Positions 399 to 18,614 of a stretch of DNA of 18,887 bases are shown here, one piece after another. Below the pieces are notes generated by a model. The model saw only the letters and a list, made by a program, of their open reading frames with translations. It was not told the DNA's origin and did no database searches. Within the stretch, counting starts at the first letter, position 1. Each line of letters begins with the position of its first letter. The position numbers were made by a program, and so were the translations under genes. Source of the stretch: Candidatus Fervidifonticultor quintus (GTDB lineage: Bacteria > Sysuimicrobiota > Sysuimicrobiia > Sysuimicrobiales > Humicultoraceae). The DNA lies in assembly GCA_031459535.1 (NCBI GenBank), contig JAVKIJ010000063.1, positions 1 through 18,887 on the forward strand. The letters run 5' to 3'.

Positions 399-878
399 AT
401 GCGCAACGTATGGTTTGTCCTCGCCGTGCTGGTCGTCGCGGCCGTCGCGGCCGGGTGCGGTGGGAGAGGCGGCGAGCAGCCCGCCGCTCAACAGCCGACC
501 CCTGGGGCGTCACCGGCAACCGCCGCATCGCCCCAACCCGCGGCGTCACCGGCGGCAGCCGCGTCACCCGCTGCGCCGGGGCGCGGGGTCGAGGGTGGGG
601 AGGTCGTCATCGTGATGAAGGACAATCTCTACGAGCCGGCGACCGTCACGATCAAGGCGGGCCAGGAGTATGAGTTCGTCGCCAAGAACGAGGGGACCAC
701 GGTCCACAACCTGATCATCCAGGCGAAGGATCAGGTGGGCCAGGACTTCGCCTCCGACATCGCGGTGAACGCCGGGCAGGACAGCAAGTTCAAAGTCAAA
801 ATCGACAAAGAGGGCACCTACCCCATGGTGTGCACGTATCATCCCGAGATGAAAGGCGAGGTCAAGGTCGTCAGATAG
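399..878 (+). CDS. Cupredoxin (type 1 blue copper) lipoprotein with Pro/Ala-rich tether
   Basis: ATG at 399 after GGAGGAGG/GGAG. Signal peptide MRNVWFVLAVLVVAAVAAG-C ends in a lipobox. C-terminal cupredoxin domain has H (VHNL) and C-T-Y-H-P-E-M copper ligands. The ORF-track start at 36 is a shadow extension. Confidence 0.88.
   Translation: MRNVWFVLAVLVVAAVAAGCGGRGGEQPAAQQPTPGASPATAASPQPAASPAAAASPAAPGRGVEGGEVVIVMKDNLYEPATVTIKAGQEYEFVAKNEGTTVHNLIIQAKDQVGQDFASDIAVNAGQDSKFKVKIDKEGTYPMVCTYHPEMKGEVKVVR
507..578 (+). repeat. Four imperfect 18-nt tandem repeats encoding ASPATA/ASPQPA/ASPAAA/ASPAAP linker
   Basis: Units start at 507, 525, 543 and 561 (GCGTCACCG-like), in frame within the cupredoxin gene. 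Confidence 0.75.
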
Positions 879-905
879 GCTAGCCAGGCCGGACACTGGC
901 ATTCT

Positions 906-948
906 GCCGGCGAGGGGCGGGGGTAGTCCGCCCCTCGCCGGCTTTGCT
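906..948 (+). terminator. Intrinsic terminator after the cupredoxin gene
   Basis: Perfect 15-bp stem GCCGGCGAGGGGCGG (906-920) / CCGCCCCTCGCCGGC (928-942), 7-nt loop, then TTTGCT. Confidence 0.75.
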
Positions 949-1081
949 CCAGACCTTCGGACGTCGGGTGTTCCCCTGATGCCAAATCAGGTCCAGGCTG
1001 GATTGTGGGCGGCAACCCCGAGGGGTACCGTCGGAAACAAGAGTAAACGGGTAAGAATATCCGGATTCTTGAGGACGACCC

Positions 1082-1525
1082 ATGGAGTTGAGCCGAGCCG
1101 CCCAGTTCGCCATCCGCACCGTCGTGGACCTGGCGGCGGTAGGGCCCACCCGGACGGCCGACATCGCCGCTCGCCGTGGCATCCCGCCTGCGCAGGCCGG
1201 AAAGATTGTGCAGCAGCTCGTGCGTGGCAGCATTGTGCGCACCACCCGGGGGGCGGCCGGCGGCGTGCGCCTGGCACGGCCGGCCGAGCGGGTGACGCTG
1301 AAAGAGGTCATCAACGCCGTCGAAGGCCCCCTGGCCGTCTCCCGGTGTATTGTCTACGACGACTGTCCCTGTGTGCAGCCCTGCCCCGTTCGTACAGCCC
1401 TGAGCCGGATTCAGCACGAACTTGAGCGCCTGTTGGACGGCGTGACCGTCGCCGACCTGGCAAGAGACGACAGGCGTCCGCGACGATCGGCCGGTGCGCC
1501 TGACGGAAGCGACATCGACGCATGA
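1082..1525 (+). CDS. Rrf2-family (IscR/NsrR-like) transcriptional regulator, probably Fe-S binding
   Basis: wHTH with RGAAGGVRLARPAERVTLKEVINAVEG signature, Cys cluster C-x5-C-x-C-x3-C, RBS GAGGA. Confidence 0.92.
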   Translation: MELSRAAQFAIRTVVDLAAVGPTRTADIAARRGIPPAQAGKIVQQLVRGSIVRTTRGAAGGVRLARPAERVTLKEVINAVEGPLAVSRCIVYDDCPCVQPCPVRTALSRIQHELERLLDGVTVADLARDDRRPRRSAGAPDGSDIDA

Positions 1526-1538
1526 AGGGAGGACGGAC

Positions 1539-3521: not shown

Positions 3522-3539
3522 TTTAGCCTCCCGCGATGC

Positions 3540-3566: not shown

Positions 3567-3579
3567 CGGGGGATGCGCG

Positions 3580-4059
3580 ATGGCAGTCACACGGAGACGG
3601 TTTCTCTACCTGGCGGCCGCCGCAGCCGCGGGGACCGCGGCCGCTCCCGCAGCCTGGGCGCTGCTTGGCCGCGCGCCCGTCGAGGTCGGCCCGCCGACCA
3701 TCCGCTACGGCCGCGACCGGTGCGACGCCTGCGGGATGATCATCAGCGACCCTCGCTACGCAGCTGCGGCGTGGAGCGGCGCGAGCGCTTCCCGCTACGA
3801 CGACATCGGATGCCTGATCGGCCGCATGGGGCAGGCCCTGGCAAGCGGCAAGGCTGCGGCGTACGTCCACGATGCCTCCAGCCAGGAATGGCTGGAAGCC
3901 GAGTCGGCCGTCTTCGTGCGTTCACCGGCGGTCCACACGCCGATGGCATCGGGCATTGCCGCGTACGCCACTGGCGAGGTCGCGGCCCGCGCGCACCCCG
4001 GCGCCGAGCTGCTGACCTTCCAGGCCCTGCTGGGCACGGGAGGCCGGGCGCCGTCATGA
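3580..4059 (+). CDS. nosL: NosL-family copper chaperone with twin-arginine-type leader
   Basis: Start MAVTRRRFL at 3580. Motifs CDACGMII, YDDIGC, W-x-x-A-x-x-A-x-F-V and TPM; lies directly after nosZ. Confidence 0.88.
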   Translation: MAVTRRRFLYLAAAAAAGTAAAPAAWALLGRAPVEVGPPTIRYGRDRCDACGMIISDPRYAAAAWSGASASRYDDIGCLIGRMGQALASGKAAAYVHDASSQEWLEAESAVFVRSPAVHTPMASGIAAYATGEVAARAHPGAELLTFQALLGTGGRAPS

Positions 4060-6026
4060 TGGCTGGCGCGCGCGAGCGGCGCGTCGTGGCCATGGCAGTG
4101 GGGCTGGCGTTCCTCCTGCTCGCGGCCGGCGCGCTGCTGCCGCTGTGGTCGATGACCCTTTACGCACCCCAGTACGTCAACGGCCTCCGGTTGACCATCG
4201 AGGGCCGCGGTGTGCGCGGCGACGTAGACGAGCTCAACGCCCTCAACCACTACATCGGGATGCCCCCCATCCGCCAGGAGGACATTCCCGAGGCGCGGCT
4301 CTTCTACCCGGCAGTGGCGGCGATCGCAGTCGGCCTGCTCCTCGTGCCGTTCATGCCGTGGCGGCCCTTCCGGTGGCTGGTGCTCTTCGGAGCGTGGGCG
4401 CTGCCGCTGGCCTTCCTGGCAGACCTGCAGTGGCGGCTCCACACCTTCGGTCACAGCCTGGACCCCAAGGCCGCCTTCCGGCTGCCGCTGTTCACGCCGA
4501 AGGTGCTCGGCCCCACGGTCGTGATGAACTTCAACGTGATGGCGATACCCGGCGCAGGCCTCCTCCTGCTGCTGCTGAGCGCGCTGGTGGCGACCTTTGG
4601 GCCGCGTCTGGCCAGCCGGGGACTGCACTGGCGCCGCGCCGGGGCGAGCATGGGGCTGGCAGCCACGGCGGCGCTGGTGCTGGCGCCGGCAGCGCCAGCG
4701 TCGACCTTGGCGCGGGTGCCGGTGGCTGGCTTCGACCTGCGGGCCGCCGTTGCGGCTGCCGCGCCGGGTGCGGTCCTCGATGTGCCCCCCGGCCTTTACG
4801 ATGGCCCCCTGGTTTTGACCAGGGCCATCACGCTGCGGGGAGGAGGCCAAGCGGTCATCGACGGCGGCGGCCGCGGCGACGTAGTGGTGATCGCCGGCGA
4901 CGATGTGCACCTGGAGGGCTTCGTCGTCCGCGGCAGCGCCCTGGTGTTCTCCAGGGAAGCGGCGGGCATCGTGGTGCGCGGCGCCCGGGCCGTGGTGCGC
5001 GACAACCGGATCGACGACGTGTTGTTCGGTATCTACCTGGCCGGCGCGCGCGACGCGGTGCTCGAGGGCAACGTTGTGCGCGCCGCCGACCTGCCGGTTG
5101 AACGGCGGGGCCATGCCATCTACCTGTGGCGCGCCCATCGCAACCACCTCCGGGCCAACCACGTGCTCCGCGGCAAGGACGGGATCTACATCTCGTTCTC
5201 GGATGACAATACCGTCGAGGACAACCGGATCAAGGGATGTCGCTACGGCATCCACTACATGTACGCGAACCGTAACACGTTCCGGCGGAATACGTTCGAG
5301 GACAATCTGGTTGGGGCCGCGGTCATGTACTCCACCGACGTGACCCTCGACGGCAACATCTTTGCCGGGAGCCGCTCCTCGGCCGCCGGCACCGGTCTGA
5401 TCTTCAAGGACGCCGACCGGCTGCTCGTACGGTCGAACCGCGTGGTCCGCAACCGCATCGGGATGGAGTTCGACAACACGCCGGCGACCATCGGGAGCTG
5501 GGCACGGGTCGAACGCAACCTGATCGCCTTCAACGAGATTGGCTTCAACCTGATGAGCACGGCGGCGATCACCGCCACGGAGAATGTCATTGTCGAGAAC
5601 CTGCAGGCGGTGCGCTGGCGCGGCGCCGCCACCTCGGGCGGCAACCGGTGGGCTGCAGGCGGCAGGGGCAACTACTGGGGCGACTACGCCGGCTTCGACG
5701 CCACGGGCGACGGGATCGGTGATGTCCCATATCGGAGGACGGACCTCCTGGAGGGTCTGGCCGGCCGGGCGCCTGCGCTGCAGGCGTTCCTGTTCACCCC
5801 CGCGCACCTAGCGCTGGAGGCCGGCGTGCGGCTGGTGCCGCTGGTCCGGGCGGAGCCGGTCGTCGAGGATCCGGCACCCCTGTTGCGTGCCCCTCATGTG
5901 CTGACCGGTAGCGGCCCGGAGAAGGCCGCCACCACGGGCGTCGACCTGTTCGTGACCGGGCTGGGGATGCTGGTGCCCGGGGTTGCGGGTCTGGTGGGGT
6001 TGCGGCTCTGGAGGCGCCGGCCGTGA
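4056..6026 (+). CDS. nosD: Fusion of NosB-like membrane protein (N-terminal) and NosD maturation protein (C-terminal, beta-helix)
   Basis: ATGA overlap with the nosL stop. N-terminal part has PLW..TLYAPQY..GL, ELNALNHYIGM and FGHSLDP plus 4 TM segments (clade II NosB-like). C-terminal part has GHAIYLW, DGIYISFS, RYGIHYMY and GNYWGDYAGFDATGDGIGDVPY (NosD), then a C-terminal TM segment. Confidence 0.9.
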   Translation: MMAGARERRVVAMAVGLAFLLLAAGALLPLWSMTLYAPQYVNGLRLTIEGRGVRGDVDELNALNHYIGMPPIRQEDIPEARLFYPAVAAIAVGLLLVPFMPWRPFRWLVLFGAWALPLAFLADLQWRLHTFGHSLDPKAAFRLPLFTPKVLGPTVVMNFNVMAIPGAGLLLLLLSALVATFGPRLASRGLHWRRAGASMGLAATAALVLAPAAPASTLARVPVAGFDLRAAVAAAAPGAVLDVPPGLYDGPLVLTRAITLRGGGQAVIDGGGRGDVVVIAGDDVHLEGFVVRGSALVFSREAAGIVVRGARAVVRDNRIDDVLFGIYLAGARDAVLEGNVVRAADLPVERRGHAIYLWRAHRNHLRANHVLRGKDGIYISFSDDNTVEDNRIKGCRYGIHYMYANRNTFRRNTFEDNLVGAAVMYSTDVTLDGNIFAGSRSSAAGTGLIFKDADRLLVRSNRVVRNRIGMEFDNTPATIGSWARVERNLIAFNEIGFNLMSTAAITATENVIVENLQAVRWRGAATSGGNRWAAGGRGNYWGDYAGFDATGDGIGDVPYRRTDLLEGLAGRAPALQAFLFTPAHLALEAGVRLVPLVRAEPVVEDPAPLLRAPHVLTGSGPEKAATTGVDLFVTGLGMLVPGVAGLVGLRLWRRRP

Positions 6027-6922
6027 TCGCCATCACCAACCTAGGAAAGCGGTTCGGCGCCTTCGTGGCGCTGGACGGCATCACCACCGCGATTGGCCGG
6101 GGCGCATTCACCCTGGTGCTCGGCGCCAACGGCGCGGGCAAGACCACCCTGTTGCGGTGCGTTCTGGGCTTGGCTGCCTTCGACGGTACCGTGACCGTGG
6201 GCGGCTACGACGTCTCCGCCGATGGCTCGGCCGCCCGGTCGCTGGTGGGCTATGTGCCCCAGCGTCCGGCGCTGCCGCCGGACCTGAGCTGCCTCGATGT
6301 CCTCGATCTGTTCGCCCGCCTGCGTGGGCGGCGCTCCGGTGACCCCGCGTGGCTGGAGAGGGTGGGGCTGGCCGCCGAAGCGTCCGCGCCCGTGCGCGCC
6401 CTGTCGGGCGGCATGCGCCAGCGCCTCGCACTGGCGGTGGCGTTGCAGGCGGATCCGCCGGTCCTCGTGTTCGATGAGCCCGCCGCGCACCTGGACGGCG
6501 CGTCGCGCCGGGCGCTCCATCGAGATCTCGCGGAACTGGCCCGTGGCGGCCGGACCGTGGTGCTGGCGACGCACCTGGCCGCGGAGCCGCTCCAGGTGGC
6601 CACGCAGGCGCTCGTCCTGCACCGCGGGCGCCTGATTTATGATGGTCCCGCAGACCGGCTGGGAGAAGCCGTCCAGCAACGGGTCGTGTTTGCGATGAAC
6701 GGCGTGGGTCGGGAACCCCTGCGGACGGCCCTGGCCAGCATGCCCGATGTACACGTGAGTGAAACGCCGGATGCGATTATCGCGACGACACCGGCTGGAG
6801 GAGCCTTTGCGCTCCTGGCGGCGGTCGCCGCCGCGGGCGTGCGGCCGTTCGAGGTCCACGTGGAGGAACCCATGGTGGATCCCGCGCGGCTCGTCCGGGC
6901 CAACGGGGAGACCAGGCGATGA
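6023..6922 (+). CDS. nosF: ABC ATPase NosF
   Basis: Walker A GANGAGKTT, signature LSGGMRQR, Walker B VLVFDEP, H-loop; GTGA overlap with nosD. Confidence 0.92.
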   Translation: MIAITNLGKRFGAFVALDGITTAIGRGAFTLVLGANGAGKTTLLRCVLGLAAFDGTVTVGGYDVSADGSAARSLVGYVPQRPALPPDLSCLDVLDLFARLRGRRSGDPAWLERVGLAAEASAPVRALSGGMRQRLALAVALQADPPVLVFDEPAAHLDGASRRALHRDLAELARGGRTVVLATHLAAEPLQVATQALVLHRGRLIYDGPADRLGEAVQQRVVFAMNGVGREPLRTALASMPDVHVSETPDAIIATTPAGGAFALLAAVAAAGVRPFEVHVEEPMVDPARLVRANGETRR

Positions 6923-7749
6923 GGACCTTGGGCGTCCTGGTCGGGCACGAACTCCGTGAAGCCGTCCGACACCGGTGGTTGGTGGGGTACGGTGTGCTGT
7001 TCGCCGCTCTGGCCCTGGGGCTCGCCCTGATCGGCCCGCGGATCTCTGGCGCCGTGGGGCTCGAAGGCTACGGTCGCACCACGGCCAGCCTTCTCAACCT
7101 CTGCCTGACCCTGGTGCCGCTGATTGCCCTGCTGTTGGGCAGTGTGGGACTCTCGGGCGACCGGGAAACCGGCGTGCTCGAGCTGTTCCTGGCGCAGCCG
7201 GCCAGCCGCGCGCAGTTGCTCATCGGGCGTTTCGCAGGCTCGCTGGCCGCCATCGGGCTCGCCACGCTGCTCGGGTTCGGGATTGCCGGCGCGCTGATCG
7301 GCCTGGCCACCGGGGCCGCCGGCGGCCTGCAGTACGCGGCGTTCTTGGGCATCGCGCTCGCCCTGGCCGCGGTCTTCCTCGCCATCGGGAGCGCCATCGC
7401 CGTCATGTCGCGCAACCGTGTGCAGGCCATCGCGCTCGCCCTCGCCGCCTGGTTTGCCGCGGTCGTCGTCTTCGATCTGGCGCTGATTGCTGCGGGAGCC
7501 CTGGTCGGCGCCGGGGTGGGGGCGCTCGCCGCCGCGGTGCTGCTGAATCCCGTCGAAGTCGCGCGGATCCTGGCGCTGCTGCTGCTCGATCCGGGCCTGG
7601 AGGTTCTCGGCCCGGTAGGTGGATTCCTGGTGGCGCGGTTGGGAACCGCCGGGACCGCCGCCCTGCTGATGACCGCCCTGGCCGCCTGGGTGACCGCACC
7701 GCTGCTCGCCGCGCTGGCGCTGTTTGAGACCCGCGATCCTCTGACCTAG
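6919..7749 (+). CDS. nosY: ABC permease NosY
   Basis: Multi-TM protein with RTTASLLNL..LVPLIALLLG, DRETGVLELFLAQP and LLNPVE motifs; ATGA overlap with nosF. Confidence 0.9.
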   Translation: MRTLGVLVGHELREAVRHRWLVGYGVLFAALALGLALIGPRISGAVGLEGYGRTTASLLNLCLTLVPLIALLLGSVGLSGDRETGVLELFLAQPASRAQLLIGRFAGSLAAIGLATLLGFGIAGALIGLATGAAGGLQYAAFLGIALALAAVFLAIGSAIAVMSRNRVQAIALALAAWFAAVVVFDLALIAAGALVGAGVGALAAAVLLNPVEVARILALLLLDPGLEVLGPVGGFLVARLGTAGTAALLMTALAAWVTAPLLAALALFETRDPLT

Positions 7750-7863: not shown

Positions 7864-8319
7864 GTGCCACCACAGATCTCGACGATCCTGGTCCCGGTGG
7901 ACTTCTCGGCGGGATCCGAGGCCGCGGTGGAGTGGGCGCAAGCGCTGGCTACCGCGTTCGGCGCGCAGCTGGTGCTGTTGCACGTGATCGACACTTCGGC
8001 CAACGCCCTGATCGGCGGGCCCGGCGGCGTCCTGGCGCCTCCTCCGCCGGCGGCGCTCTATGACGAGCTGCGCGAGGAGGCCCGCACCGCCATGGCCGCG
8101 CTCGCTGCCCGCGTGCCGGGCGCCTCAGCCCTGATTCGCGAGGGATCACCCCGTCACGAGATCCTGGCGACTGCTGCTGGCGTGAAGGCCGATCTCATCG
8201 TGATGGGGACCCACGGTCGCACCGGGCTCGCGCACCTCCTCTTCGGCAGCGTGGCCGAACACATCGTACGTCACGCGCCGGTCCCGGTCTTCACCATTCG
8301 CCGTCGGGACGCCGTATGA
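7864..8319 (+). CDS. Universal stress protein (UspA family)
   Basis: ILVPVDFS, LLHV, DLIVMGTHGRTGLAHLLFGSVAEHIVRHAPVPV (ATP-binding G-2x-G-9x-GS motif); GTG start with strong RBS. Confidence 0.95.
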   Translation: MPPQISTILVPVDFSAGSEAAVEWAQALATAFGAQLVLLHVIDTSANALIGGPGGVLAPPPPAALYDELREEARTAMAALAARVPGASALIREGSPRHEILATAAGVKADLIVMGTHGRTGLAHLLFGSVAEHIVRHAPVPVFTIRRRDAV

Positions 8320-8990
8320 GCCCCTCGCCCAGGAAGCGGCAGATTCGCCCCAGAAGGGCCCCGGTCATCGCCGTGGTGCTGCTCGCTGCCGCCGCGGCTG
8401 CGGTGGCCGCCGTCGTCCACTTCACGACCGCGAAGCCTGCGCCGCCCGCCCTGGACGCCGCGCTGGCGCCCGCCGAGCCCGGCGGCAAGTCACGCGGCCG
8501 GCCCGATGCGCCCGTGGTCGTGGAGATCTTTTCGGATTTCCTGTGCATCCACTGTGCAGACTTCGCCAACAGCACCGAGCGGGCCCTGGTCGCAGAGTTC
8601 GTCGAACCCGGCGTCGTCAGGCTGATCTACAGGCAGTTCCCGGTGATCTCCCAGTTGTCCGTGAGCATCGCCGAAGCCAGCGAGTGCGCCGCAGACCAGA
8701 AGCGCTTCTGGGCGTTCCACGACGCTGTCTACGTCCGGGTCCAGCGCGGCGCCATGCGCCGGGCCGCCGACATCGACAGTGCCGCCCGCGAGGCCCGGTT
8801 GGACCTGGCGGCCCTGGCCACGTGCCGCCAGGGGGGCCGCATGCGGTCCCGCGTCGAAGCCGACTTCAACGACGGGGCGTCCCGCGGCGTCCAGGCCACC
8901 CCGACGTTCTTCATCAACGGCCGGCAGGTCGTGGGCAACCAGCCCCTCGACGTCTTCCGCGCTGAGATCAATGCCGCCCGGAAGCGCTGA
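8316..8990 (+). CDS. dsbA: Membrane-anchored DsbA/BdbD-like thiol-disulfide oxidoreductase
   Basis: N-terminal TM segment, GRPDAPVVVEIFSDFLCIHC (CxxC), GVQATPTFFING cis-Pro loop; ATGA overlap with usp. Confidence 0.88.
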   Translation: MSPSPRKRQIRPRRAPVIAVVLLAAAAAAVAAVVHFTTAKPAPPALDAALAPAEPGGKSRGRPDAPVVVEIFSDFLCIHCADFANSTERALVAEFVEPGVVRLIYRQFPVISQLSVSIAEASECAADQKRFWAFHDAVYVRVQRGAMRRAADIDSAAREARLDLAALATCRQGGRMRSRVEADFNDGASRGVQATPTFFINGRQVVGNQPLDVFRAEINAARKR

Positions 8991-10055: not shown

Positions 10056-10772
10056 ATGCTGGTGCGCGACCGCATGTCCAGTCCGGCCATCGTGATCGAC
10101 GTCGACGCGTCCATCGCCGAGGCGCACACGCTCATGCGCCAGCACGATATTCGGCGGCTGCCGGTGCTCAAGCGCGGACGGCTGGCGGGTATCGTGACCT
10201 GGACCGACCTCATGCGTGCTGAACCGTCCCCTGCTTCCACGTTGAGCGCGTTTGAGGTGCCGTCGCTGCTCAGGTCGGCGCGGGTTGGCGAGATCATGAC
10301 CCCCGAGCCGATCACGATCGGACCCGATGCCCCCATCGAGGCTGCCGCGGTGATCATGCGGCGTGAGAAGATCGGGGGCCTCCCGGTGACCCAGGGTCAG
10401 ACCCTGCTGGGCGTGGTGACCGAGAGCGACATCTTCGAGGCGTTCATTGACCTCACCGGGCTGCGCAGGGGAGGGGCGCGGCTGGTGGTGGATCTGTCCG
10501 GACGGACGAACCCGATCGCGGGCATCGCGGCCATCGTCGAGGCCAGTGGGGTGGCCCTGACATCGCTGGCGACGTACCAGCAGGAAGGTCGCCAGCTAGC
10601 CGTGGTGCGAGTGGACGCGCCCTACCCGCTACACGTGGTGCAGGCGCTGAGCGACGGAGGCTTTGCGGTGCTGCACCTGGCGGCCGCGCCCGAGGCTGCG
10701 GACGACGCGCGAGGCAGCCGACGGCCGTACGAGGAGTACACGAAGGCCTGGGTCACGGAGCGGCAGCACTAG
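10056..10772 (+). CDS. CBS-pair plus ACT-like domain protein (AcuB-like)
   Basis: Start MLVRDRMS. Motifs IRRLPV..GRLAGIVT..DL and KIGGLPV...LLGVVTESDIFEAFIDLTG, then a C-terminal ACT-like alpha/beta domain. Confidence 0.85.
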   Translation: MLVRDRMSSPAIVIDVDASIAEAHTLMRQHDIRRLPVLKRGRLAGIVTWTDLMRAEPSPASTLSAFEVPSLLRSARVGEIMTPEPITIGPDAPIEAAAVIMRREKIGGLPVTQGQTLLGVVTESDIFEAFIDLTGLRRGGARLVVDLSGRTNPIAGIAAIVEASGVALTSLATYQQEGRQLAVVRVDAPYPLHVVQALSDGGFAVLHLAAAPEAADDARGSRRPYEEYTKAWVTERQH

Positions 10773-10928: not shown

Positions 10929-11312
10929 TTAGCGTGATCGGGGCTGGAGCGGACAGAGGACGCCGGAGAAGGACCGGTTCCTGGCCCACGCCTCCCAGGC
11001 CTCGTCACCCAGTGCGGCCCGCATGGCGGCTGAGACCAATCGTTCCCCCGGCGCCGCATCGTGCGCGGTGAACAGCAGCAGCAGATGACAGGGGAACTCG
11101 GGACAGACCCCGCAGTGCTCCACCCCACGCTGCCGGGCGCAGGCGTAGACCGGGCAGATGTTGCGCAGCTCGACCTCCTCCTGCCGTGAGCACGACGGGA
11201 CGTGTTCCTCAAACCAGGCATCGCCCTCGAAGCGCGCGCCGCAGATGCCGGCGAACCGGCGACCGCCGAGTTCGCGCTCGGCGCGGCGGATGGCCTCCTC
11301 AGCGGTAGACAT
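10929..11312 (-). CDS. Cys-rich small protein, DUF3795-like
   Basis: Start MSTAEE after RBS AAGGGGGG; CPVYAC..RGVEHCGVCPEFPC motif; 8 Cys in total. Confidence 0.7.
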   Translation of the reverse strand: MSTAEEAIRRAERELGGRRFAGICGARFEGDAWFEEHVPSCSRQEEVELRNICPVYACARQRGVEHCGVCPEFPCHLLLLFTAHDAAPGERLVSAAMRAALGDEAWEAWARNRSFSGVLCPLQPRSR

Positions 11313-11418
11313 GCGAATCCCCCCTTGGTCACACCGTATGGCGGTCGCCGGCTGGTGTCCATCGAGTCCCGAGAGTATGTCCACGGTTGGGACGATGTGT
11401 CATACTGGCGATGCAACC

Positions 11419-11652
11419 ATGTGTCTCGCGGTACCGTACCGCCTGGTGGAGATCCGCGGCCCGGGGCGCGCGTTGGCCGAAGGGCCCGATGGCGTGCGCG
11501 AGATCTCCACGGAGCTGCTCGACGCGCCGGCCCCCGGCACGTATGTGCTCGTGGCCTACGGCGCCGCGGTCCGCGAGATCGACCCCGCCGATGCCGCACA
11601 GTTGCGCGGGCTCCTGGCGGCCATGCAGGCGGCGTCTGAGGATCTGCCCTGA
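11419..11652 (+). CDS. hypC: HypC/HybG/HupF-family hydrogenase chaperone, atypical (no conserved His)
   Basis: N-terminal MCLAVP and PGTYVLVAYGAAVREID; 77 aa; in hydrogenase context. Confidence 0.82.
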   Translation: MCLAVPYRLVEIRGPGRALAEGPDGVREISTELLDAPAPGTYVLVAYGAAVREIDPADAAQLRGLLAAMQAASEDLP

Positions 11653-11678: not shown

Positions 11679-11793
11679 ACCGCCCCGGTCCTTCCCCCTA
11701 GGCGCTGACCCGGAGACCCACCTACGGCGGAATCCACTGTAGGACCGATGGTGGCTCGCAGGCCCAGACGGTATCGTGGCAATGGAGGACGCT

Positions 11794-12576
11794 GTGGCGC
11801 AGCAGCATCAGTCTCTTGTCGCCCCACCCGTAGATCGGACAGCGGTGCGCGATTCATCGCTGGACGGGATGCGCCTGTTTGCCCGGTTCGCGTTCCCACC
11901 TAATCGCCTGGGGTACTGCGGGGCCGACGTCAACACCGAGATCCTTGGCTACCTCCAATCCGGCACGGCCGACGAAGGGCTGCGGCGTCACCTGCGGACT
12001 TTTGCTGCGGCCTATCCGTACCTGGAGCTGATCGCCCGGTGCAATGGCATTGCCGATCCGTTCGACGTTCGGGTCGTGGAGGCGTACTGGATCGGGAACG
12101 CGTTGCTGGAGCGTGTGGACTGGGCCCGCTACGCTCGGGACCTGCACGAGCGGTTTCGAGGGCGTGCCTCGCCCGCGACCATGGAACTGTTGGTGGGCAA
12201 GCCGCCGGCCGGCGCGCGGGCCCACCACGCCTTCCACGTGTTCGACGTCTCCCGGCGCCTGGGGCTGCCGCACGGCGATCTGGCCCTGGATCTGTGCCGC
12301 ATCGCATGGGGGACGATCACCGCCGTCGAGCCCGGGGCCTTCGTGGTGTCCTACCGGCCCATCGTCATCCAGGCCGGCCGGCTCGCATTTGGCGATCCTC
12401 GGCCGGAGCGGGTGCTGCGGGCGCTGGAGGTGGATCCCGACCTGGACGGCGCCGCGCCCGGTGATGTGCTGGCTTTCCACTGGCGGTGGGCCGCCGTCCG
12501 CTTGCGGCCCGATCAGGTGGCCGCCCTGGAGCGGTATACGCGCGGCATGATGGCGCTGGCCAATCAGACGTTCTGA
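11794..12576 (+). CDS. DUF6390-like uncharacterised protein in the hydrogenase maturation cluster
   Basis: GTG 11794 after GGAGGA (alternative start 11776). Motifs PPNRLGYCG, YPYLELIA, VVEAYWIGN, HHAFHV, CRIAWG and FHW. Family name is from memory. Confidence 0.7.
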   Translation: MAQQHQSLVAPPVDRTAVRDSSLDGMRLFARFAFPPNRLGYCGADVNTEILGYLQSGTADEGLRRHLRTFAAAYPYLELIARCNGIADPFDVRVVEAYWIGNALLERVDWARYARDLHERFRGRASPATMELLVGKPPAGARAHHAFHVFDVSRRLGLPHGDLALDLCRIAWGTITAVEPGAFVVSYRPIVIQAGRLAFGDPRPERVLRALEVDPDLDGAAPGDVLAFHWRWAAVRLRPDQVAALERYTRGMMALANQTF

Positions 12577-12586
12577 ACGAACTGCG

Positions 12587-12832
12587 ATGCACGAGGTGGC
12601 GGTGGCGGAGGCACTGTTGCAGCAGGCGGCGGAGGCGGCCGAGCGCGCCGGGTTGACCGTGGTGCAGAACGTGGGAGTCTGCGTGGGCGAGCTCAGCGGC
12701 GTCGCCCCCCAGGCACTGGCGTTCGCATTCGAGATCCTGCGCAGTGGTCCCATGCTGGGAGGGGCGTCGCTCCAGATCCGCGCGACGGCCGGCGACGACC
12801 TGCACCTGGAGTGGGTCGAGGGGGAGTCGTGA
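12587..12832 (+). CDS. hypA: Hydrogenase nickel chaperone HypA, short form lacking the Zn-finger
   Basis: N-terminal MHE, VGELSGV...ALAFAF, GASLQI and C-terminal GDDLHLEWVE; only 81 aa, no CxxC. Confidence 0.85.
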   Translation: MHEVAVAEALLQQAAEAAERAGLTVVQNVGVCVGELSGVAPQALAFAFEILRSGPMLGGASLQIRATAGDDLHLEWVEGES

Positions 12833-13500
12833 TGCGAGTCGAGGTCCTCGAGCGCGTCCTGCGGGCCAATGACGCGCTGGCAGCGGAGGTCCGCGCCATG
12901 CTGGACCGGGCCGGAACCGTGGCGATCAACGTCATCGGGTCCCCCGGCAGTGGCAAGACCGCGCTGCTGGAGCAGACGGCGGCCATTCTGCATCCTCGGG
13001 TGCGGCTGGGTGTCATCGAGGGCGACATCGCCACCACCCGGGACGCCGAGCGTATCGCCCGGTGCGGTGTGCCGGCGGTGCAGATAGAGACCCGGCTGGT
13101 GGGCAACGCGTGCCATCTGGACGCCAACCTGGTTCGGTCGGCCTTGCAGCGGCTGCGGCTTCCAGAGATCCAGGTGCTGTTCGTGGAGAACGTCGGCAAC
13201 CTGGTCTGCCCGTCGGCGTACGATCTGGGAGAGCACTTGCGCGTGGTGGTGGCCAGCGTGCCCGAAGGCGATGACAAGCCGCGCAAGTACCCCGCCACCT
13301 TCGCACGGGCCTCGGCGGTGGTGCTGAACAAGGTGGACCTGTTGCCGGTGACGGACTTCTCACTGGCGGCGTTCACCGAGGGCCTGCGCGAGGTGGCAAC
13401 CGCGCCGCTCTTCCCGCTCTCGGCGCGCACGGGTGAGGGGCTGGGCACCTGGATCGCCTGGGTTGAGGCCCAGCGCGAGGTGATGCAGAGGGTGGGATGA
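12832..13500 (+). CDS. hypB: Hydrogenase nickel-insertion GTPase HypB
   Basis: TGATG overlap with hypA; GSPGSGKT, ACHLDA, ENVGNLVCP, EGDDKPRKYP, NKVD. Confidence 0.96.
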   Translation: MRVEVLERVLRANDALAAEVRAMLDRAGTVAINVIGSPGSGKTALLEQTAAILHPRVRLGVIEGDIATTRDAERIARCGVPAVQIETRLVGNACHLDANLVRSALQRLRLPEIQVLFVENVGNLVCPSAYDLGEHLRVVVASVPEGDDKPRKYPATFARASAVVLNKVDLLPVTDFSLAAFTEGLREVATAPLFPLSARTGEGLGTWIAWVEAQREVMQRVG

Positions 13501-13991
13501 GCATGACTGGCGAGACCGGAGGAAACGTGGTCCTCGACGCGCTGCGCACAAGCCCCCTGTTTGGATTCCTGGAGTCTGCGCACCTGGAGAAGCTCGTGGC
13601 CTTCGCCCGCGAGGTGTCCTGGCCGCCAGACCGGGTGATCTTCCGCGAGGGAGAACCGGATGACAAGCTCTATCTGGTGCTGGAAGGTCTGGTGGCCCTG
13701 GACATCTACGTGCCGGGCCGCGGCCGCGTCACGATTCTGACCATCGGCCCGCAGGAGGTCCTGGGGTGGTCGGCGGCGGTGCCGGAGGTGGAGAAGAAGA
13801 CCGCCAGCGCCCGCACCCTGCAGCCCACGCGCGCCATCGCCATAGACGCCTCAGCGCTCCATGCGGCCTGCGAGCAGGATCACGATCTCGGCTATCACGT
13901 CTACCGGACGCTGGCCAACGTGATTGCCAGCCGCCTGAAGGCCACGCGCCTGCAGCTGCTGGACGTGTACGGGGTCAGCGAGAGGACGTGA
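13497..13991 (+). CDS. Stand-alone cyclic-nucleotide-binding-fold (Crp effector-like) protein, no HTH
   Basis: IFREGEPDDKLYLVLEGLV, GPQEVLGWS, TASART; 164 aa; ATGA overlap with hypB. Confidence 0.88.
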   Translation: MSMTGETGGNVVLDALRTSPLFGFLESAHLEKLVAFAREVSWPPDRVIFREGEPDDKLYLVLEGLVALDIYVPGRGRVTILTIGPQEVLGWSAAVPEVEKKTASARTLQPTRAIAIDASALHAACEQDHDLGYHVYRTLANVIASRLKATRLQLLDVYGVSERT

Positions 13992-13999: not shown

Positions 14000-15121
14000 A
14001 TGCCCGCCCGTACCCCGTCGCTGGGCGCCCACGTGGTCATCCCGAAGCCGGCGCTCCAGCATGTCTTCGATGCCCTGCGCGATGCCGGTTACACCGTGAT
14101 CGGTCCCACCGTGGCCCAGGGGGCCATTGTCTATGACAAGATCACCCAGGTAGCCGATCTGCCCATCGGATGGACCGACGAGCAGGGCCCCGGCACGTAC
14201 CGGTTGCGCCGCCAGGCCGATGGGCGGTACTTCGGGTTCGTGGTCGGTCCCCATTCGTGGAAGAAATACCTCTACCCGTCGCGGCTGAGACTCTTTTCGG
14301 TGCACCGCGACGGGGACGGATTTGCCGTGCAGGCCGATGGGGAGACTCCGCCCAAGTACGCGTTCATCGGCGTTCGGGGTTGCGAGATGGCCGCCATCGC
14401 AGTGCAGGATCGGGTCTTCCTGGAAGGCGCGGTCTGTGACCCGTACTACAAGGCTGCACGCCAGGTGGCATTCCTGCTGGCCGTCAACTGCGTCGAACCG
14501 CATGCCACGTGTTTCTGCGCCTCCATGAAGACCGGCCCGCGCTGCGCCTCCGGGTTCGACCTGGCCCTGACCGAACTGGCCGATGCGTTCGTGCTGGAGG
14601 TCGGCTCGGAGCTCGGCGCTCAGATGCTAGTCGGCGTCGACTGGCGGCCGGCGGGCGCCTTTGAGTTGAGCCACGCCCGGCGGCTGCTGGCCGAGGCCGA
14701 GACGAAGATGGGCCGAACCCTGGAGACCCGCGACCTCCCCGATCTCCTCTACGAGCGCCTCGAGCACTCCCGGTGGGCCGAGGTGGCGCTGCGGTGTCTG
14801 TCCTGCGCCAACTGCACCATGGTCTGCCCGACGTGCTTCTGCGCCGACGTGCACGAGGTCTCTGACCTCACCGGAGAGACCGCGGCCCGCGTGCGGGTGT
14901 GGGACTCGTGCTTTGATCGCGACTTCTCCCATGTCTTCGGCGGTAACCTGCGGCCCAACATCCGCGCCCGCTACCGTCAGTGGTTGACCCACAAGCTCGC
15001 GGCCTGGATCGATCAGTTCGGCGTCTCTGGCTGCGTGGGATGCGGCCGGTGCATCACGTGGTGCCCGGTTGGCATCGACCTGACCGAGGAAGTGGCCGCG
15101 ATTAGGGAGGAACCCGAATGA
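14000..15121 (+). CDS. hyhB: Group 3b hydrogenase (sulfhydrogenase) beta subunit, 4Fe-4S dicluster protein
   Basis: [44 protein letters not shown]. Start ATG 14000 (alternative GTG 13988). Confidence 0.92.
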
Positions 15122-15987
15122 GTGCGGTGCAGGTCACCGCAACTGGGCCCCCGGCCGCAGTTCACCCGATGGTCCCCTGGCCGGCGATCATCACCCAGAT
15201 CCAGCCCGAGGCGGCAGGGATCGCCACCTACACGCTGGAGTTCCGGGACCCCGCGGTGCGAGAGGCGTACCGGTTTCGGCCAGGGCAGTTCAACATGCTG
15301 TACGTCCCGGGGATCGGGGAGTCGGCCATCTCCATCAGTTCGGATCCCGCGGAACCGTCCAGCCTCCGGCACACCATTCGCCTCGCCGGCAACGTCACCC
15401 AGGCCATCGGGCGGTTGACCGCCGGCGACTGGATCGGCGTCCGCGGGCCGTACGGGAGCCAGTGGCCGATGGACCGGGCCCTGGGCAGGGATCTCATCAT
15501 CGTCGGCGGTGGGATCGGGATGGCGCCCCTGCGGCCGGCGATCTATTACCTCATCAGGCACCGGGCCCAGTACGGACGGGTGACCATTCTGATCGGGGCC
15601 CGGACGCCTGCGGACCTACTCTACCCGCAGGAGTACGACGTCTGGCGCGGCCACGACATGGACGTGGTGGTTACCGTGGATCGAGCCGACGAGACCTGGA
15701 AGGGCCGGGTGGGTGTCGTCCCGATCCTCTTCTACTCCCTGCGACCCGATCCCAGGCGCACGACGGTCTTCACGTGCGGGCCCGAGATCATGATGCGGTT
15801 CGTCATCTACGAAGCCCTGGCCCGGCGCATTCCCAAGGACGCCATCTTCCTGTCCCTGGAGCGCAACATGAAGTGCGCCGTGGCGTTCTGCGGCCGTTGC
15901 CAGTACGGGCCGGTCTTTCTCTGCAAGGACGGCCCGGTCCTCAGCTACGACCGCCTCGAGCCGTTCTTTGGTGTGGAGGAGTACTGA
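15118..15987 (+). CDS. hyhG: Group 3b hydrogenase gamma subunit (FAD/NAD(P)-binding, 2Fe-2S)
   Basis: [46 protein letters not shown]...CKDGPV. Confidence 0.93.
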
Positions 15988-16799
15988 TGGCCGCACCCGG
16001 AAGGCGTCCCCCGACCCTGGCGGTGTTCAAGTTCGCGTCCTGCGACGGCTGTCAGCTCTCGCTGCTGGATTGCGAAGACGAACTGCTGGCCGTGGCAGGG
16101 CAGATGGACATCGCCTACTTCCCCGAGGCCCGGCGCCGCGCGGTCGCCGGGCCCTATGACCTGGCGCTGGTCGAGGGATCGGTGACCACGGCGGAGGAGG
16201 TCGAGCGTATCAAGGAGGTGCGCCGGCAGTCCCGGATGCTGGTCACCATCGGGGCATGCGCCACCGCGGGCGGCATCCAGGCGTTGCGCAACTGGGCCGA
16301 CGTGGCCGAGTTCGCCCGCGTGGTCTATGCCAGCCCCGAGTACATTCACACCCTGGCGCACTCCAGGCCGATCAGCGACTTCGTGCCCGTGGACTTTGAA
16401 CTGCGCGGGTGCCCGATCAGCAAGGCCCAGCTCCTGGAGCTGATCACCTCCGTGCTCGTGGGCCGCAGGCCACAGACGCCCGCGCACAGCGTGTGTGTGG
16501 AGTGCAAGCGGGGCGGGACCGTGTGCGTTATGGTCGGCTCGGGCATCCCGTGTCTGGGCCCGGCCACCCAGGCGGGCTGCGGGGCCATCTGCCCGGCCTA
16601 CGGGCGCGGATGCTACGGGTGCTTCGGCCCCATGGAGCTGCCCAACGGGGTAGCCCTGGGGACCCGCTTCCTGACCCTGGGCCAGGCCCCCGGGGACGTG
16701 GTACGGGCCTTTAGGCTCTTCAATGGCTACGCGCCGGCATTTCGGGCGACCAGCCAGCGTTTCGGCCGGGGTGCTGTTGCCGATCAATCGGGGGAATGA
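15987..16799 (+). CDS. hyhS: Group 3b [NiFe]-hydrogenase small (delta) subunit
   Basis: TGATG overlap; [55 protein letters not shown]. No export signal. Confidence 0.93.
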
Positions 16800-18103
16800 G
16801 GTCGATGGCCCAGCGGCGGATCAACGTGGACTATCTGGCCCGCGTGGAGGGCGAGGGCGCCTTGCGCGTGGTCCTCGAGGACGACCGGGTGAGCGACGTG
16901 CAGCTCAACATCTTCGAGCCACCCCGGTTCTTCGAGGCGTTTCTGCGCGGCCGGTACTTCCAGGAGGCGATTGACATCACCGCGCGCATCTGCGGTATCT
17001 GCCCAGTCGCCTACCAGATGAGCGCGGCCCACGCCCTGGAGAAAGCCCTGGGGATCGCCCCGCCGCCGGGCGTGCGGGCGCTGCGGCGCCTGTTCTACTG
17101 CGGCGAGTGGATCGAGAGCCATGTGCTACACATCTTCATGCTGCACGCGCCCGACTTCCTGGGGCACGAGTCATCCATCAGCATGGCCGCCGATCCCGCG
17201 CTGCGGCCGTGGGTCGAGCGGGCGCTGCGGATGAAGAAGATCGGCAACCACCTGATGACGGTGATCGGCGGCCGGGAGATTCATCCGGTCTCGGTGTGCG
17301 CCGGCGGGTTCTACCGCGCACCCCGTCGCGCCGATCTGACGGCGCTGGCGCCAGATCTGGCCTGGGGGCTCGAGACCGCCGTCGCTGCCGTCCGGTGGGC
17401 CGCCGGCCTCGCGTATCCCGACTTCGCCCCCGACTACGAGTTCGTGTCCCTGTCCCATCCCGACGAGTACCCGATGAACGAAGGCCGGGTTCGGTCCTCG
17501 CGCGGGCTCGATATCCCCGTCGAAGCCTTTGAAACCCACTTCACCGAGCTGCACGTAGCGCACTCCAATGCCTTGCACTCGTGCCGCGCCGATACCCAGA
17601 CCAGCTACATGGTCGGACCACTGGCCAGAGTGAACCTCAACTTCGACCGGCTGTCGCCTGCGGCGCAGGCGGTCGCGCGTGAGGTCGGGCTGCGGCTCCC
17701 CATTCACAACCCGTTCATGAGCCTGCTGGCGCGCGGGCTGGAGACCGTGCACGCCTTCGAGGAGGCCCTTGCGCTCGTCGAAGGGTACTGGCCGCCCGAC
17801 CCGCCCGCCACACCGGCGGCACTGCGGGACGGTGAGGGCGCACACGCGACCGAGGCCCCCCGCGGGCTGCTCTACCATCGGTACCGAGTGGGCGCCGACG
17901 GGCTGATCACGGAGGCCAGGATCGTGCCGCCCACCGCCCAGAACCTCAAACGCATGGAGGACGACCTCTGGCAGTTCGTCCCGAACGTCCTGCACCTGCC
18001 GCAAGACGAGGTCACGTGGCGGTGTGAGCAGCTCGTCCGCAGCTACGATCCGTGCATCTCGTGCGCGACCCACTTCCTGAAGCTGCAGATCGATCGGCGC
18101 TAG
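16796..18103 (+). CDS. hyhL: Group 3b [NiFe]-hydrogenase large (alpha) subunit
   Basis: RVEGEG, L1 [26 protein letters not shown]2 [12 protein letters not shown] plus short C-terminal extension FLKLQIDRR. Alternative start 16805. Confidence 0.97.
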
Positions 18104-18110
18104 GGCTGCC

Positions 18111-18614
18111 ATGGGCGCCACAGCCCCCGCCGTCCTCATCATCGGCGTGGGAAACGACGATCGGGGAGACGATGCTGCGGGACTGCTGGCGGCACGGCGG
18201 GTCCGGGCCCAGCTCGCTGCGCGCCCGGCGTCTGGCGCCGGGGTGGCCGTGGTCGAGTGCACCCGTGATCCGACCACCCTCACGGAGGTGTGGGAAGGCG
18301 CAGGGCTGGTCTTCCTGCTGGACGCTGTCCAGTCCGGCGCCCCCCCGGGCACGATCCGGCGCTTCGAGGCGGGCACGGAGCCGCTGGTGGTGGGACGGGG
18401 GCGCGGTTCCACCCATGCCCTCGGCGTGGCCGAGGCTGTTGAGCTTGCCCGGGCCCTCGGCCGGCTCCCGCCCCGGCTGATTGTCTACGGGATCGAAGCC
18501 ACAACCTTCGTTCCGGGTACGCGACCCACGCCCGCCGTCGACGAGGCGGCGTCGGAGGTCGCCGGCCGCGTCCTCGGCGAGATCCCCCACGAGCTGATCA
18601 CCCCAGGAGCCTAG
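18111..18614 (+). CDS. Hydrogenase maturation endopeptidase
   Basis: IIGVGNDDRGDDAAG, LLDAV, STHALG, VYGIE; directly follows the large subunit. Confidence 0.93.
   Translation: MGATAPAVLIIGVGNDDRGDDAAGLLAARRVRAQLAARPASGAGVAVVECTRDPTTLTEVWEGAGLVFLLDAVQSGAPPGTIRRFEAGTEPLVVGRGRGSTHALGVAEAVELARALGRLPPRLIVYGIEATTFVPGTRPTPAVDEAASEVAGRVLGEIPHELITPGA

Follow-up and report, generated by a model that had tools for sequence, protein, structure and literature searches.

Introduction

Clade II (Sec-type) nos clusters, known for example from Wolinella, Anaeromyxobacter and Gram-positive reducers of nitrous oxide (N2O), encode a Sec-type N2O reductase (NosZ), the proteins NosD, NosF, NosY and NosL, and a small membrane protein by nosZ. 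Group 3b [NiFe]-hydrogenases, for instance sulfhydrogenase I of Pyrococcus and Thermococcus and the enzyme Hyh of Mycobacterium smegmatis, have four subunits encoded in the order beta-gamma-small-large, with an AsrA-like beta and an AsrB-like gamma subunit. In this study, we describe a locus that carries both. It occupies the whole 18,887-base contig C99 (hereafter the window) of a metagenome-assembled genome (MAG; G000 in our numbering) of Candidatus Fervidifonticultor quintus, a hot-spring bacterium in which nos genes adjoin soluble-hydrogenase genes; a feeding of N2O reduction by H2 is hypothetical only. Taken singly, both modules are well known, and the locus is a variant, not a new kind.

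The nos genes of the window share with the known clade II clusters the Sec-type NosZ, the NosD, NosF, NosY and NosL set and, putatively, the small membrane protein by nosZ, with no nosR or nosX in the window. Unlike those clusters, the loci seen in the candidate phylum CSP1-3, to which the organism belongs, have rrf2 directly before nosZ. In addition, the window has a lipoprotein cupredoxin and no cytochrome c or NosGH-type genes, its membrane domain is fused to NosD (a fusion known from a 72-member cluster), and its NosL carries a signal of the twin-arginine translocation (Tat)-like kind. The hydrogenase has the subunits and the gene order of the two 3b enzymes named above and, like Hyh of M. 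smegmatis, sits among hypoxia-type genes. It differs from the known 3b systems in that its operon encodes a protein with a cyclic nucleotide monophosphate (cNMP)-binding domain, and in its hyp set: the operon region has hypC, DUF6390, a short hypA and hypB, whereas neither HypD nor HypF was found in the genome. Its subunits also score below the narrow Thermococcales equivalog cut-offs of NCBIfam.

The mycobacterial DosR hypoxia regulon offers a further comparison. There, as here, universal stress protein (USP), CBS and hemerythrin genes occur with a 3b hydrogenase and a NarL-family response regulator, and palindromes overlap the -35 region of several promoters. Unlike the DosR box, whose centre measures 4 bases, the site in the window has a 2-base centre; its binder is a candidate only, and the regulon includes many transport genes. 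Hyh of M. smegmatis is described, in the available part of a preprint (bioRxiv 10.1101/2023.09.11.557286), as a hypoxia-induced, H2-evolving redox valve activated by DosS/T-DosR.

The genus Fervidifonticultor was assigned to CSP1-3, named Sysuimicrobiota there, in a 2024 paper (PMC11604079). The available text of that paper portrays the phylum as facultative anaerobes, states that its nosZ and hydrogenases were acquired horizontally, and proposes H2 as an electron donor. As far as the available parts of PMC11604079 and PMC11962464 go, clade II nos and 3b hydrogenases of CSP1-3 are already published; in these parts, and in the other literature searched on nos and 3b hydrogenase, the genes are mentioned separately and a linkage was not found. 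Nor did we find, in the literature searched, any of four observations reported below: that nos adjoins hyh in the genus, that rrf2 is conserved beside nosZ, that the promoters have a palindrome in common, and that HypD/HypF and DUF6390 exclude each other.

Our best explanation, in which we place a little better than even confidence, is that N2O respiration and the hydrogenase would be switched on together upon a change in oxygen or redox state, as parallel outlets for reducing power.

Results

Transcription units and a common promoter palindrome

The MAG comprises 3.1 Mb in 138 contigs (68.7% G+C, 88.85% completeness, 5.24% contamination), and each absence given below for it means not found in an 88.85% complete MAG. 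Its closest named relative is Candidatus Fervidifonticultor tertius (G005; locus L010 = G005:C18). Genes were identified by Pfam and NCBIfam profile scans, plus extra profile scans, of the window proteins. Seven units were read: the cupredoxin gene; rrf2-nosZLBDFY; usp-dsbA-vkor; hr-cbs, where hr encodes a hemerythrin-domain protein; the DUF3795 gene on the minus strand; hypC; and DUF6390-hypA-hypB-cNMP-hyhBGSL-protease. Hairpins lie 3' of the cupredoxin gene, nosZ and cbs. Furthermore, cbs and DUF3795 are convergent, and DUF3795 and hypC are divergent.

When the upstream regions of rrf2, hr and DUF6390 were aligned across species, we found a common 22-base imperfect palindrome with a TANNNT hexamer 16-24 bases on. 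The core of the palindrome is approximately ATCGGG-N6-CCCGAT, with A-rich and T-rich flanks, and palindrome and hexamer were present in all 20 regions (8 of rrf2, 6 of hr and 6 of DUF6390). A weight matrix trained on 17 sites of other genomes only, used at a cut-off of 14 bits, located the following sites in the window:

984..1005, + strand: palindrome before rrf2-nosZ, 21.8 bits, -10-like TANNNT 20 bases on
9456..9477, + strand: palindrome before hemerythrin-CBS, 27.6 bits, -10-like TANNNT 19 bases on
11730..11751, + strand: palindrome before DUF6390-hypA-hypB-cNMP-hyhBGSL-protease, 21.4 bits, -10-like TANNNT 20 bases on
18618..18639, + strand: palindrome before the GNAT operon and after the protease gene, 18.5 bits, with a -10-like hexamer; also on contig C82

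The whole MAG gave 65 matches of at least 14 bits, that is 56 distinct places, versus 4 in the reversed genome. Five of the 65 lie on the 18.9-kb contig C99, at four distinct places, one of which is read on both strands. The site density is high in this neighbourhood (four of about seven units). In addition, the arrangement site-rrf2-nosZ is kept, at 14 bits or more, in seven of seven distant nos loci (G007, G011, G012, G028, G033, G039 and G058), and the DUF6390 site scores 23.3 bits in locus L007. A weak site of 10.8 bits with a -10-like hexamer stands on the minus strand at 11380, by the DUF3795 gene.

The centre of the palindrome lies about 42 bases upstream of the predicted transcription start, which was set 7 bases after the hexamer by the usual spacing rule; this distance suits a putative dimeric regulator touching RNA polymerase. 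Since the centre is at a class II activator position and the palindrome overlaps the -35 region, activation and repression are both possible.

The genes following 40 other matches were scanned, and 29 had a Pfam family. Among them are regulators (a second rrf2, MerR, AsnC, HxlR and ArsR), transport-related genes (ABC solute-binding proteins, a branched-chain amino-acid permease and CstA) and genes for an Sdh/Frd flavoprotein, a molybdopterin oxidoreductase with its iron-sulfur (Fe-S) partner, MoaA and a cytochrome bd-like protein.

Synteny and distribution in CSP1-3

We surveyed 94 CSP1-3 genomes including G000, with the unpublished G013 and G022 taken into the tallies; NosZ was counted at E up to 1e-50 and the 3b large subunit at 56% identity or more. 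NosZ was found in 28 genomes, the 3b enzyme in 36 and both in 12. The nos genes and hyhL stand on one contig in G000, G001, G002 and G005 only, all of them Fervidifonticultor (g1; G000-G005), that is in four of the six species of the genus. In the other two (G003 and G004), the contig ends inside the region, and the gene order is compatible with linkage. Outside the genus, nos and 3b genes lie on different contigs in G059, G076 and G090 and also in G007, G028 and G039, where no partner was found in the fetched flanks of 15-18 kb. A comparison of synteny among relatives had been proposed as a check on the original prediction, which was made from the window alone: the two clusters are linked inside the genus and unlinked in relatives outside it.

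Two sister genera keep part of the arrangement. G011 (g7) and G012 (g8) retain rrf2-nosZLBDFY-dsbA-vkor-hr-cbs, with HypC next in G011 and HypB farther on in either genome. G011 also has DUF6390-hypA in place, while in G012 DUF6390 is elsewhere on the chromosome. The hydrogenase that follows shares no more than about 30% identity with HyhL in both genomes and is thus another type on the nos-hyp scaffold. A large-subunit-like frame near the nos genes of g8 (L100 18868-19425; G012:C1:808864-810525) has two in-frame TGA codons, which could mean selenocysteine or a broken gene.

Meanwhile, G018 of genus g4 has usp-dsbA-vkor-cbs-hypC-(ABC transporter)-DUF6390-hypAB-cNMP-hyhBGSL-protease without nos, and locus L008 keeps usp-dsbA-vkor-cbs-hypC...hypAB, also without nos. 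No NosZ was found in any of the eight g4 genomes, which keep Hyh at 75-80% identity, and several CSP1-3 genomes have NosZ without Hyh. In G001, the genes that abut usp in g4 are found on the upstream side of nos, some 11 kb away from usp; the nos module is thus a discrete indel of about 11 kb, which fits the horizontal gain of nosZ and hydrogenases given in the available text of PMC11604079.

This indel bears on the possibility that the neighbourhood reflects descent only. The nos genes would then have been gained beside, or lost from, an older hyp-hydrogenase stretch, their adjacency would be meaningless, and the palindrome would be the site of a global regulator standing before about one in thirty operons (an estimate, not a count). 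Such a history agrees with the indel and the published horizontal acquisition just mentioned, with a broad regulon, with nos and hyh being separate transcription units, and with nos and 3b genes being unlinked in G007, G028 and G039 within the fetched regions. It accords less well with the local enrichment of the site, found at four of about seven units here versus 56 places in a 3.1-Mb genome, and with the fact that nos stays by hyp and hydrogenase genes in three genera despite the changing hydrogenase type. Taken together, we consider descent alone a possible explanation, though a rather unlikely one.

The nos module

The features of the nos module are as follows:

399..878, + strand: cupredoxin (plastocyanin/azurin-like) lipoprotein; PF13473 E 3.3e-15, PF00127 E 4.9e-08
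1082..1525, + strand: Rrf2-family regulator with a C-x6-C-x5-C cysteine group; PF02082 E 1.1e-29, TIGR00738 99.8 bits
1539..3521, + strand: NosZ, Sec-type (clade II) N2O reductase; TIGR04246 816.2 bits, cut-off 625
3580..4059, + strand: NosL copper chaperone with a Tat-like TRRRF signal; PF05573 25.3 bits, cut-off 24
4056..6026, + strand: membrane domain-NosD fusion of 656 amino acids; TIGR04247 NosD 352 bits, cut-off 300
6023..6922, + strand: NosF, ABC ATPase; PF00005 E 2.7e-23 and its place within the nos operon
6919..7749, + strand: NosY, ABC-2 permease; PF12679 E 2.1e-19

The assignment of NosZ to clade II made beforehand agrees with these scans, since the protein exceeds the TIGR04246 cut-off and stays below those of the TAT-type model (TIGR04244, 452.2 bits versus 625) and of the clade III model L-NosZ (NF052460, 215.6 versus 700). 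Read by eye from the translation, its signal peptide has one arginine followed by a hydrophobic stretch and no twin arginine. The HH, SPHG, PLHT, HYxxGH and EPH histidine stretches, which we take to hold the CuZ ligands, and the C-terminal CuA motif C-x3-C-x3-H-x2-M align with the solved NosZ 5i5i. Among solved structures, those of clade I NosZ came closest (E 1.6e-109).

The rest of the proposed nosZ-L-BD-F-Y set was recovered at its expected places by the profile scans, with the identity of NosB putative. The TIGR04247 match spans residues 389-772 of the long open reading frame. No Pfam family matched the N-terminal part of the fusion (about 230-235 amino acids, roughly a four-helix membrane domain). 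Structural look-alikes of this domain, at TM values of 0.71-0.75, are nos-linked hypothetical proteins that occur standalone, fused to NosD or fused to NosL; the NosD fusion forms a cluster of 72 proteins, mostly of Actinomycetota, and the NosL-fused form is found in Bacteroidota. Because the look-alikes are standalone or NosD/NosL-fused, reading the protein as NosB plus NosD is reasonable, with NosB as a putative name.

The stop of rrf2 lies 13 bases ahead of nosZ, and the two genes are probably co-transcribed. In every CSP1-3 nos locus inspected, rrf2 is immediately upstream of nosZ. Between the -10-like hexamer and the rrf2 start, a further element is conserved at about 1055-1072. This short, AATCCGGATT-like palindrome could be the operator of the nos-linked Rrf2 protein. 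The cupredoxin gene is kept upstream of rrf2-nosZ in the other five genomes of the genus (G001, G002, G003, G004 and G005). A lipobox-type signal and C..H..M copper ligands are legible in its translation, and the protein is likely the direct electron donor to NosZ.

The hydrogenase module

On the far side of the window, the following features were identified:

11419..11652, + strand: HypC chaperone; PF01455 E 1e-14, TIGR00074 54 bits, cut-off 48
11776..12576, + strand: DUF6390, hydrogenase-linked protein; PF19927 E 1.1e-59
12587..12832, + strand: short HypA of 81 amino acids; PF01155, profile positions 1-67 of 112
12811..13500, + strand: HypB nickel GTPase; TIGR00073 242 bits, cut-off 121
13497..13991, + strand: protein of 164 amino acids with a cNMP-binding domain only; PF00027 E 5.6e-14
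14000..15121, + strand: HyhB, beta subunit, AsrA-like Fe-S protein; PF17179 E 1.6e-32, best NCBIfam match sulfhydrogenase HydB E 5.5e-43
15118..15987, + strand: HyhG, gamma subunit, AsrB-like and FAD/NAD(P)-binding; PF00175 and PF10418, NF006220 E 5.6e-59, HydG E 2.2e-48
15987..16799, + strand: HyhS, small (delta) subunit; PF01058 E 1.4e-24, HydD E 2.8e-48
16796..18103, + strand: HyhL, group 3b [NiFe] large subunit; PF00374, nearest solved structure sulfhydrogenase 1 alpha (9nez_D)
18111..18614, + strand: hydrogenase maturation endopeptidase (protease); TIGR00072 101.7 bits, cut-off 47

Group 3b, as originally assigned, is supported by the subunit make-up, by the best NCBIfam matches of all four hyh products, which are sulfhydrogenase subunits, and by the nearest solved structure. 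HyhL matches sulfhydrogenase 1 alpha over its full length with E 1.5e-72, followed by Mvh of group 3c (1.5e-47) and, farther off, NAD-reducing Hox-type enzymes of group 3d (1.1e-43) and Frh of group 3a (1e-32). In the structure-relative alignment, both NiFe cysteine motifs are present, RxCGxC near the N-terminus and DPCxxCxxH near the C-terminus. The distance from the end of nosY to the start of hypC, put at about 3.7 kb in the first reading, measured 3.67 kb.

The true start of DUF6390 is probably further downstream than 11776. The short HypA consists of the nickel-binding N-terminal part alone, without the zinc-finger part, and an equal length was aligned in all relatives.

The cNMP-domain protein has no DNA-binding domain and matches only the N-terminal 142 of the 236 positions of the FtrB model. 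Since its phosphate-binding stretch looks non-canonical, the protein may be a regulatory subunit. Its gene precedes hyhB in the window and lies between hyhB and hyhG in G028, G039 and G007 (loci L150, L152 and L154); it also adjoins 3b genes in two Chloroflexota loci (L044 and L068).

Maturation genes

The original prediction spoke of a full hydrogenase set. The beta, gamma, small and large subunits and the protease are indeed there, and HypD, HypE and HypF were not found in the MAG: the profile search gave no match for HypD, and the best matches were 105 bits for HypE (cut-off 252) and 33 bits for HypF (cut-off 466). The canonical HypA-HypF set is therefore incomplete, with HypC, the short HypA, HypB and the protease present. 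HypD was also found in none of the other five species of the genus, whose genomes are up to 98% complete.

Among the 94 CSP1-3 genomes, HypD occurs in 8, true HypF in 10 (a partial 198-bit match in G003 was excluded) and DUF6390 in 37. None combines DUF6390 with HypD or HypF, so that DUF6390 is present in 0 of the 8 HypD genomes. A large-subunit match was found in 45 genomes; 35 of these have DUF6390 without HypD, 7 have HypD without DUF6390, and 3 have neither (completeness 91, 68 and 83%). The genomes are related to one another, and these counts are descriptive only. For other phyla, we sampled the genomes of 50 of 74 DUF6390-bearing loci, including the unpublished G099 and G124. A [NiFe] large subunit was found in 44 of the 50, and 35 of the 44 were without HypD and 9 with it.

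A pairwise BLASTP comparison of DUF6390 with HypC gave E 0.068 over 55 residues, which is too weak to confirm a likeness, and the family name had no occurrence in the literature searched. The 3.6-kb gap between hypC and DUF6390 of relatives was considered as a place for hypD and hypE; it encodes an Opp/Nik-like ABC transporter instead, with one solute-binding protein and two permeases (L097 300-3950 of G001; also G002, G011, G018, L007 and L008). This transporter, which may take up nickel, occupies the gap in most relatives but is not at that place in G000 and G005; the nearest G000 copy is on contig C1, with 50-59% identity.

With HypD, HypF and HypE under their cut-offs in G000, and with HypD in only 8 and true HypF in 10 of the 94 phylum genomes, the hydrogenase genes might be taken for relics beyond maturation, the builders of the cofactor being missing. 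We think this very improbable. All four hyh frames are open, RxCGxC and DPCxxCxxH are intact and a C-terminal cleavage tail is present, and two genera share the operon at 74-80% identity. Furthermore, the pattern of DUF6390 present and HypD absent recurs in 35 of the 45 hydrogenase-bearing phylum genomes, and likewise 35 of the 44 hydrogenase genomes with DUF6390 from other phyla are without HypD. Retention of HypD-less hydrogenases on such a scale argues for function.

Respiratory chain and RNA evidence

According to the first reading, the nar, nir and nor genes and a membrane-bound uptake hydrogenase are all missing from the window, and the scans bear this out. In the whole MAG, NirS was not found, and there was no true NarG (best match 60 bits versus 1084). 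The sole NirK match, a two-domain multicopper oxidase with 83.5 bits versus a cut-off of 296, was not counted as nirK. The MAG encodes two NuoD genes, three cytochrome b genes and one haem-copper oxidase, and since this oxidase is the sole one, there is no NorB candidate. On these grounds, the organism appears to reduce N2O without denitrifying and to respire oxygen as well, which fits the description of the phylum as facultative anaerobes in the available text of PMC11604079.

Besides the 3b enzyme, the MAG encodes a second [NiFe] hydrogenase, a cytoplasmic Mvh/Vhu-like enzyme of group 3c (contig C77, 6461-16609; locus L005); uptake hydrogenases of groups 1 and 2 were not found. The group 3c enzyme has its own protease gene, HdrB-like and HdrA-like genes and two histidine kinases alongside, and no palindrome of at least 14 bits was found on C77.

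These genes raise the question of whether H2 drives N2O respiration. In such a chain, Hyh would pass electrons from H2 to NAD(P)H, and complex I, menaquinone, cytochrome bc and the cupredoxin would carry them on to NosZ; the island would be one catabolic unit standing in for a membrane-bound uptake hydrogenase. All parts of the chain are encoded (Hyh with its FAD/NAD(P) gamma subunit, two NuoD, three cytochrome b and the cupredoxin by nosZ), group 1 and group 2 enzymes were not found beside the 3b and 3c ones, the promoter site is common to nos and hyp-hyh, and H2 is proposed as an electron donor of the phylum in the available text of PMC11604079. Nevertheless, we judge this route unlikely, because the 3b linkage belongs to one genus only, with another hydrogenase at that place in two sister genera; because eight g4 species keep Hyh (75-80% identity) without NosZ and several genomes have NosZ without Hyh; because the best-studied bacterial 3b enzyme is an H2-evolving valve; and because the literature found contained no experiment tying 3b enzymes to N2O. 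The hydrogenase type beside nos is interchangeable among genera, and the only physiologically studied bacterial 3b enzyme found is a valve; for these two reasons we give the larger share to parallel electron sinks.

Contigs assembled from one hot-spring metatranscriptome library covered all 30 bins of the window. There were 216 pieces, 40 at least 99% alike, 81 at 95-99% and 95 at 90-95%; long, nearly identical pieces span nosY-usp, cbs-DUF3795, DUF6390-hypA, hypB-cNMP and hyhL. These contigs are compatible with in situ transcription of both modules and show neither level nor strand.

Linking genes and continuation on contig C82

Between the two modules and at the end of the window, we identified:

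7806-7834: sigma-70-like promoter of usp (promoter scan)
7864..8319, + strand: universal stress protein; PF00582 E 6.4e-38
8316..8990, + strand: DsbA-like thioredoxin-fold protein; PF13462 E 1.3e-28, NF041057 Rcas_1661 137 bits, below the cut-off of 190
9034..9438, + strand: VKOR-family quinone-linked disulfide oxidoreductase; PF07884 E 2e-24
9538..10041, + strand: hemerythrin-domain protein (hr); PF01814 E 1.1e-12
10056..10772, + strand: CBS-pair protein with an ACT-like tail, followed by a hairpin; PF00571 E 3e-32
10929..11384, - strand: DUF3795 cysteine-rich protein, between the nos and hyp-hyh sides; PF12675 E 5.8e-08
18661..18887, + strand: start of a GNAT-like gene (about 209 amino acids) that runs on to contig C82

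The USP, DsbA/VKOR, hemerythrin and CBS genes that had been named as joining the two clusters were all found by Pfam. The cupredoxin, rrf2, DUF3795, DUF6390, hypA, hypB and cNMP-domain genes are further members of the locus that the original prediction did not name. The last 278 bases of C99 (window 18610-18887) match the end of C82 (locus L170) at 97% identity, and the 3% mismatch suggests a strain mixture in the MAG. On C82, the gene order is GNAT-like, CBS, USP, CBS/BON, 2-oxoacid:ferredoxin oxidoreductase (POR) alpha and gamma and a NarL-type response regulator, followed by a P-type ATPase, TatA, TatC and then housekeeping genes (identified by Pfam). The same order is found downstream in G005. 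The idea of a low-oxygen/redox neighbourhood is supported, with C82 adding GNAT-CBS-USP-CBS/BON, the oxidoreductase subunits and the NarL-type regulator.

Candidate regulators of the palindrome

Three Rrf2 genes are present in G000 (contigs C99, C111 and C55), two of them preceded by the palindrome, and the orthologues of the nos-linked rrf2 have two tandem palindrome copies. Since genus g4 keeps sites without nosZ, the nos-linked Rrf2 paralogue is probably not the sole binder. According to the available part of PMC5015018, RsrR of Streptomyces venezuelae, a global [2Fe-2S] Rrf2 regulator, has hundreds of sites in the genome, its operators are inverted repeats, and its own promoter contains sites in tandem. 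The palindrome system resembles it in architecture alone (an Rrf2 protein, many sites and tandem own-promoter copies).

The single clear CRP/FNR-family protein of G000 (contig C47) is without cysteines and has a cyclic AMP-type pocket and an R-E-x-x-x-R recognition helix. Meanwhile, GTGA-N6-TCAC is enriched in G000 (71 versus 10 in the reversed genome), and TTGAT-N4-ATCAA occurs once. The CRP-family protein probably binds the GTGA motif, in a separate classical CRP-type regulon. As a binder of the palindrome it was ranked low, GTGA-N6-TCAC being the likelier CRP motif.

The NarL-type response regulator lies on C82, about 5 kb past the end of the window. It was weighed as a possible DosR orthologue: its closest solved structure is VraR, DevR comes fourth, and its recognition helix is unlike that of DevR. 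Its 7-2-7-like fit to the palindrome is a mere resemblance.

Discussion

The gene content, the classification of the products, the operon breaks and the synteny were observed directly, as was the motif, which is over-represented. The role of the motif as a regulator site, its binder, the inducing signal, the direction of Hyh and all electron paths are inferred. Within these bounds, the locus consists of two known, separately transcribed modules inside a conserved low-oxygen/redox neighbourhood of Fervidifonticultor. One signal, acting via the common palindrome, would raise four promoters: those of rrf2-nos, hemerythrin-CBS, DUF6390-hyp-hyh and GNAT-CBS-USP. The Rrf2 protein with its cysteine group would sense nitric oxide, iron-sulfur status or redox state. 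Electrons for NosZ would flow from the quinone pool via a cytochrome bc complex to the membrane-anchored cupredoxin, and NosL, the NosB-like/NosD fusion, NosF and NosY would assemble the copper-sulfide centre of NosZ. Meanwhile, Hyh would keep NAD(P)H and H2 in equilibrium, like its DosR-controlled counterpart in M. smegmatis; it might run toward H2 uptake, or toward H2 release as a valve for times without an acceptor.

Several observations weigh against a joint switch of this kind. First, nos and hyh are separate transcription units and not one operon; an opposite-strand gene separates them, as does a convergent gene pair with a hairpin. None of usp, hypC and the cupredoxin gene has a site of at least 7 bits. 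Second, the linkage of nos and 3b genes is confined to one genus, and across the phylum nosZ and the 3b enzyme occur independently of each other. Near the 3b operon, G039 and G007 gave no site of at least 14 bits, and the only one in G028 lies 2.4 kb upstream; in G018, no site stands before DUF6390. Third, the function of the palindrome as a regulator site is a predicted one, and it marks a global regulon of about 56 sites, not an island-specific switch. The regulon being broad, the shared site says little on a specific link of nos and hyh. Fourth, the RNA comes from the contigs of one library in which DNA carry-over is possible, so that co-expression is not demonstrated. Finally, with HypD and HypF not found, the maturation of the hydrogenase is in question.

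The co-regulated switch of the original prediction thus keeps one part, a predicted site common to the nos, hemerythrin-CBS and hyp-hyh units, and loses another to the separate units, the broad regulon and the one-genus linkage. Co-regulation of nos and hyh is plausible, but it would be global.

The separate ideas can also be joined in a bolder picture. One redox-sensing regulator would induce, via the palindrome, both the cupredoxin-fed NosZ and Hyh; cytoplasmic H2 oxidation would pay for N2O respiration without a membrane uptake hydrogenase; and the hydrogenase would be built by a HypC-DUF6390-HypA-HypB route without HypD and HypF. That all of this holds at once seems quite unlikely to us.

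The hydrogenase is one of many [NiFe] enzymes that come from genomes without HypD and HypF; if these enzymes are active, the textbook maturation pathway is not universal. In addition, the locus offers testable items, namely a predicted operator sequence found before both the nos operon and the hydrogenase operon, the conserved pairing of rrf2 with nosZ, and a few candidate regulators. Non-denitrifying organisms with clade II NosZ are the main biological sink of N2O, a strong greenhouse gas. CSP1-3 bacteria are abundant in soils and hot springs, and the electron source of their NosZ and the signal that induces it bear on when these cells consume N2O.

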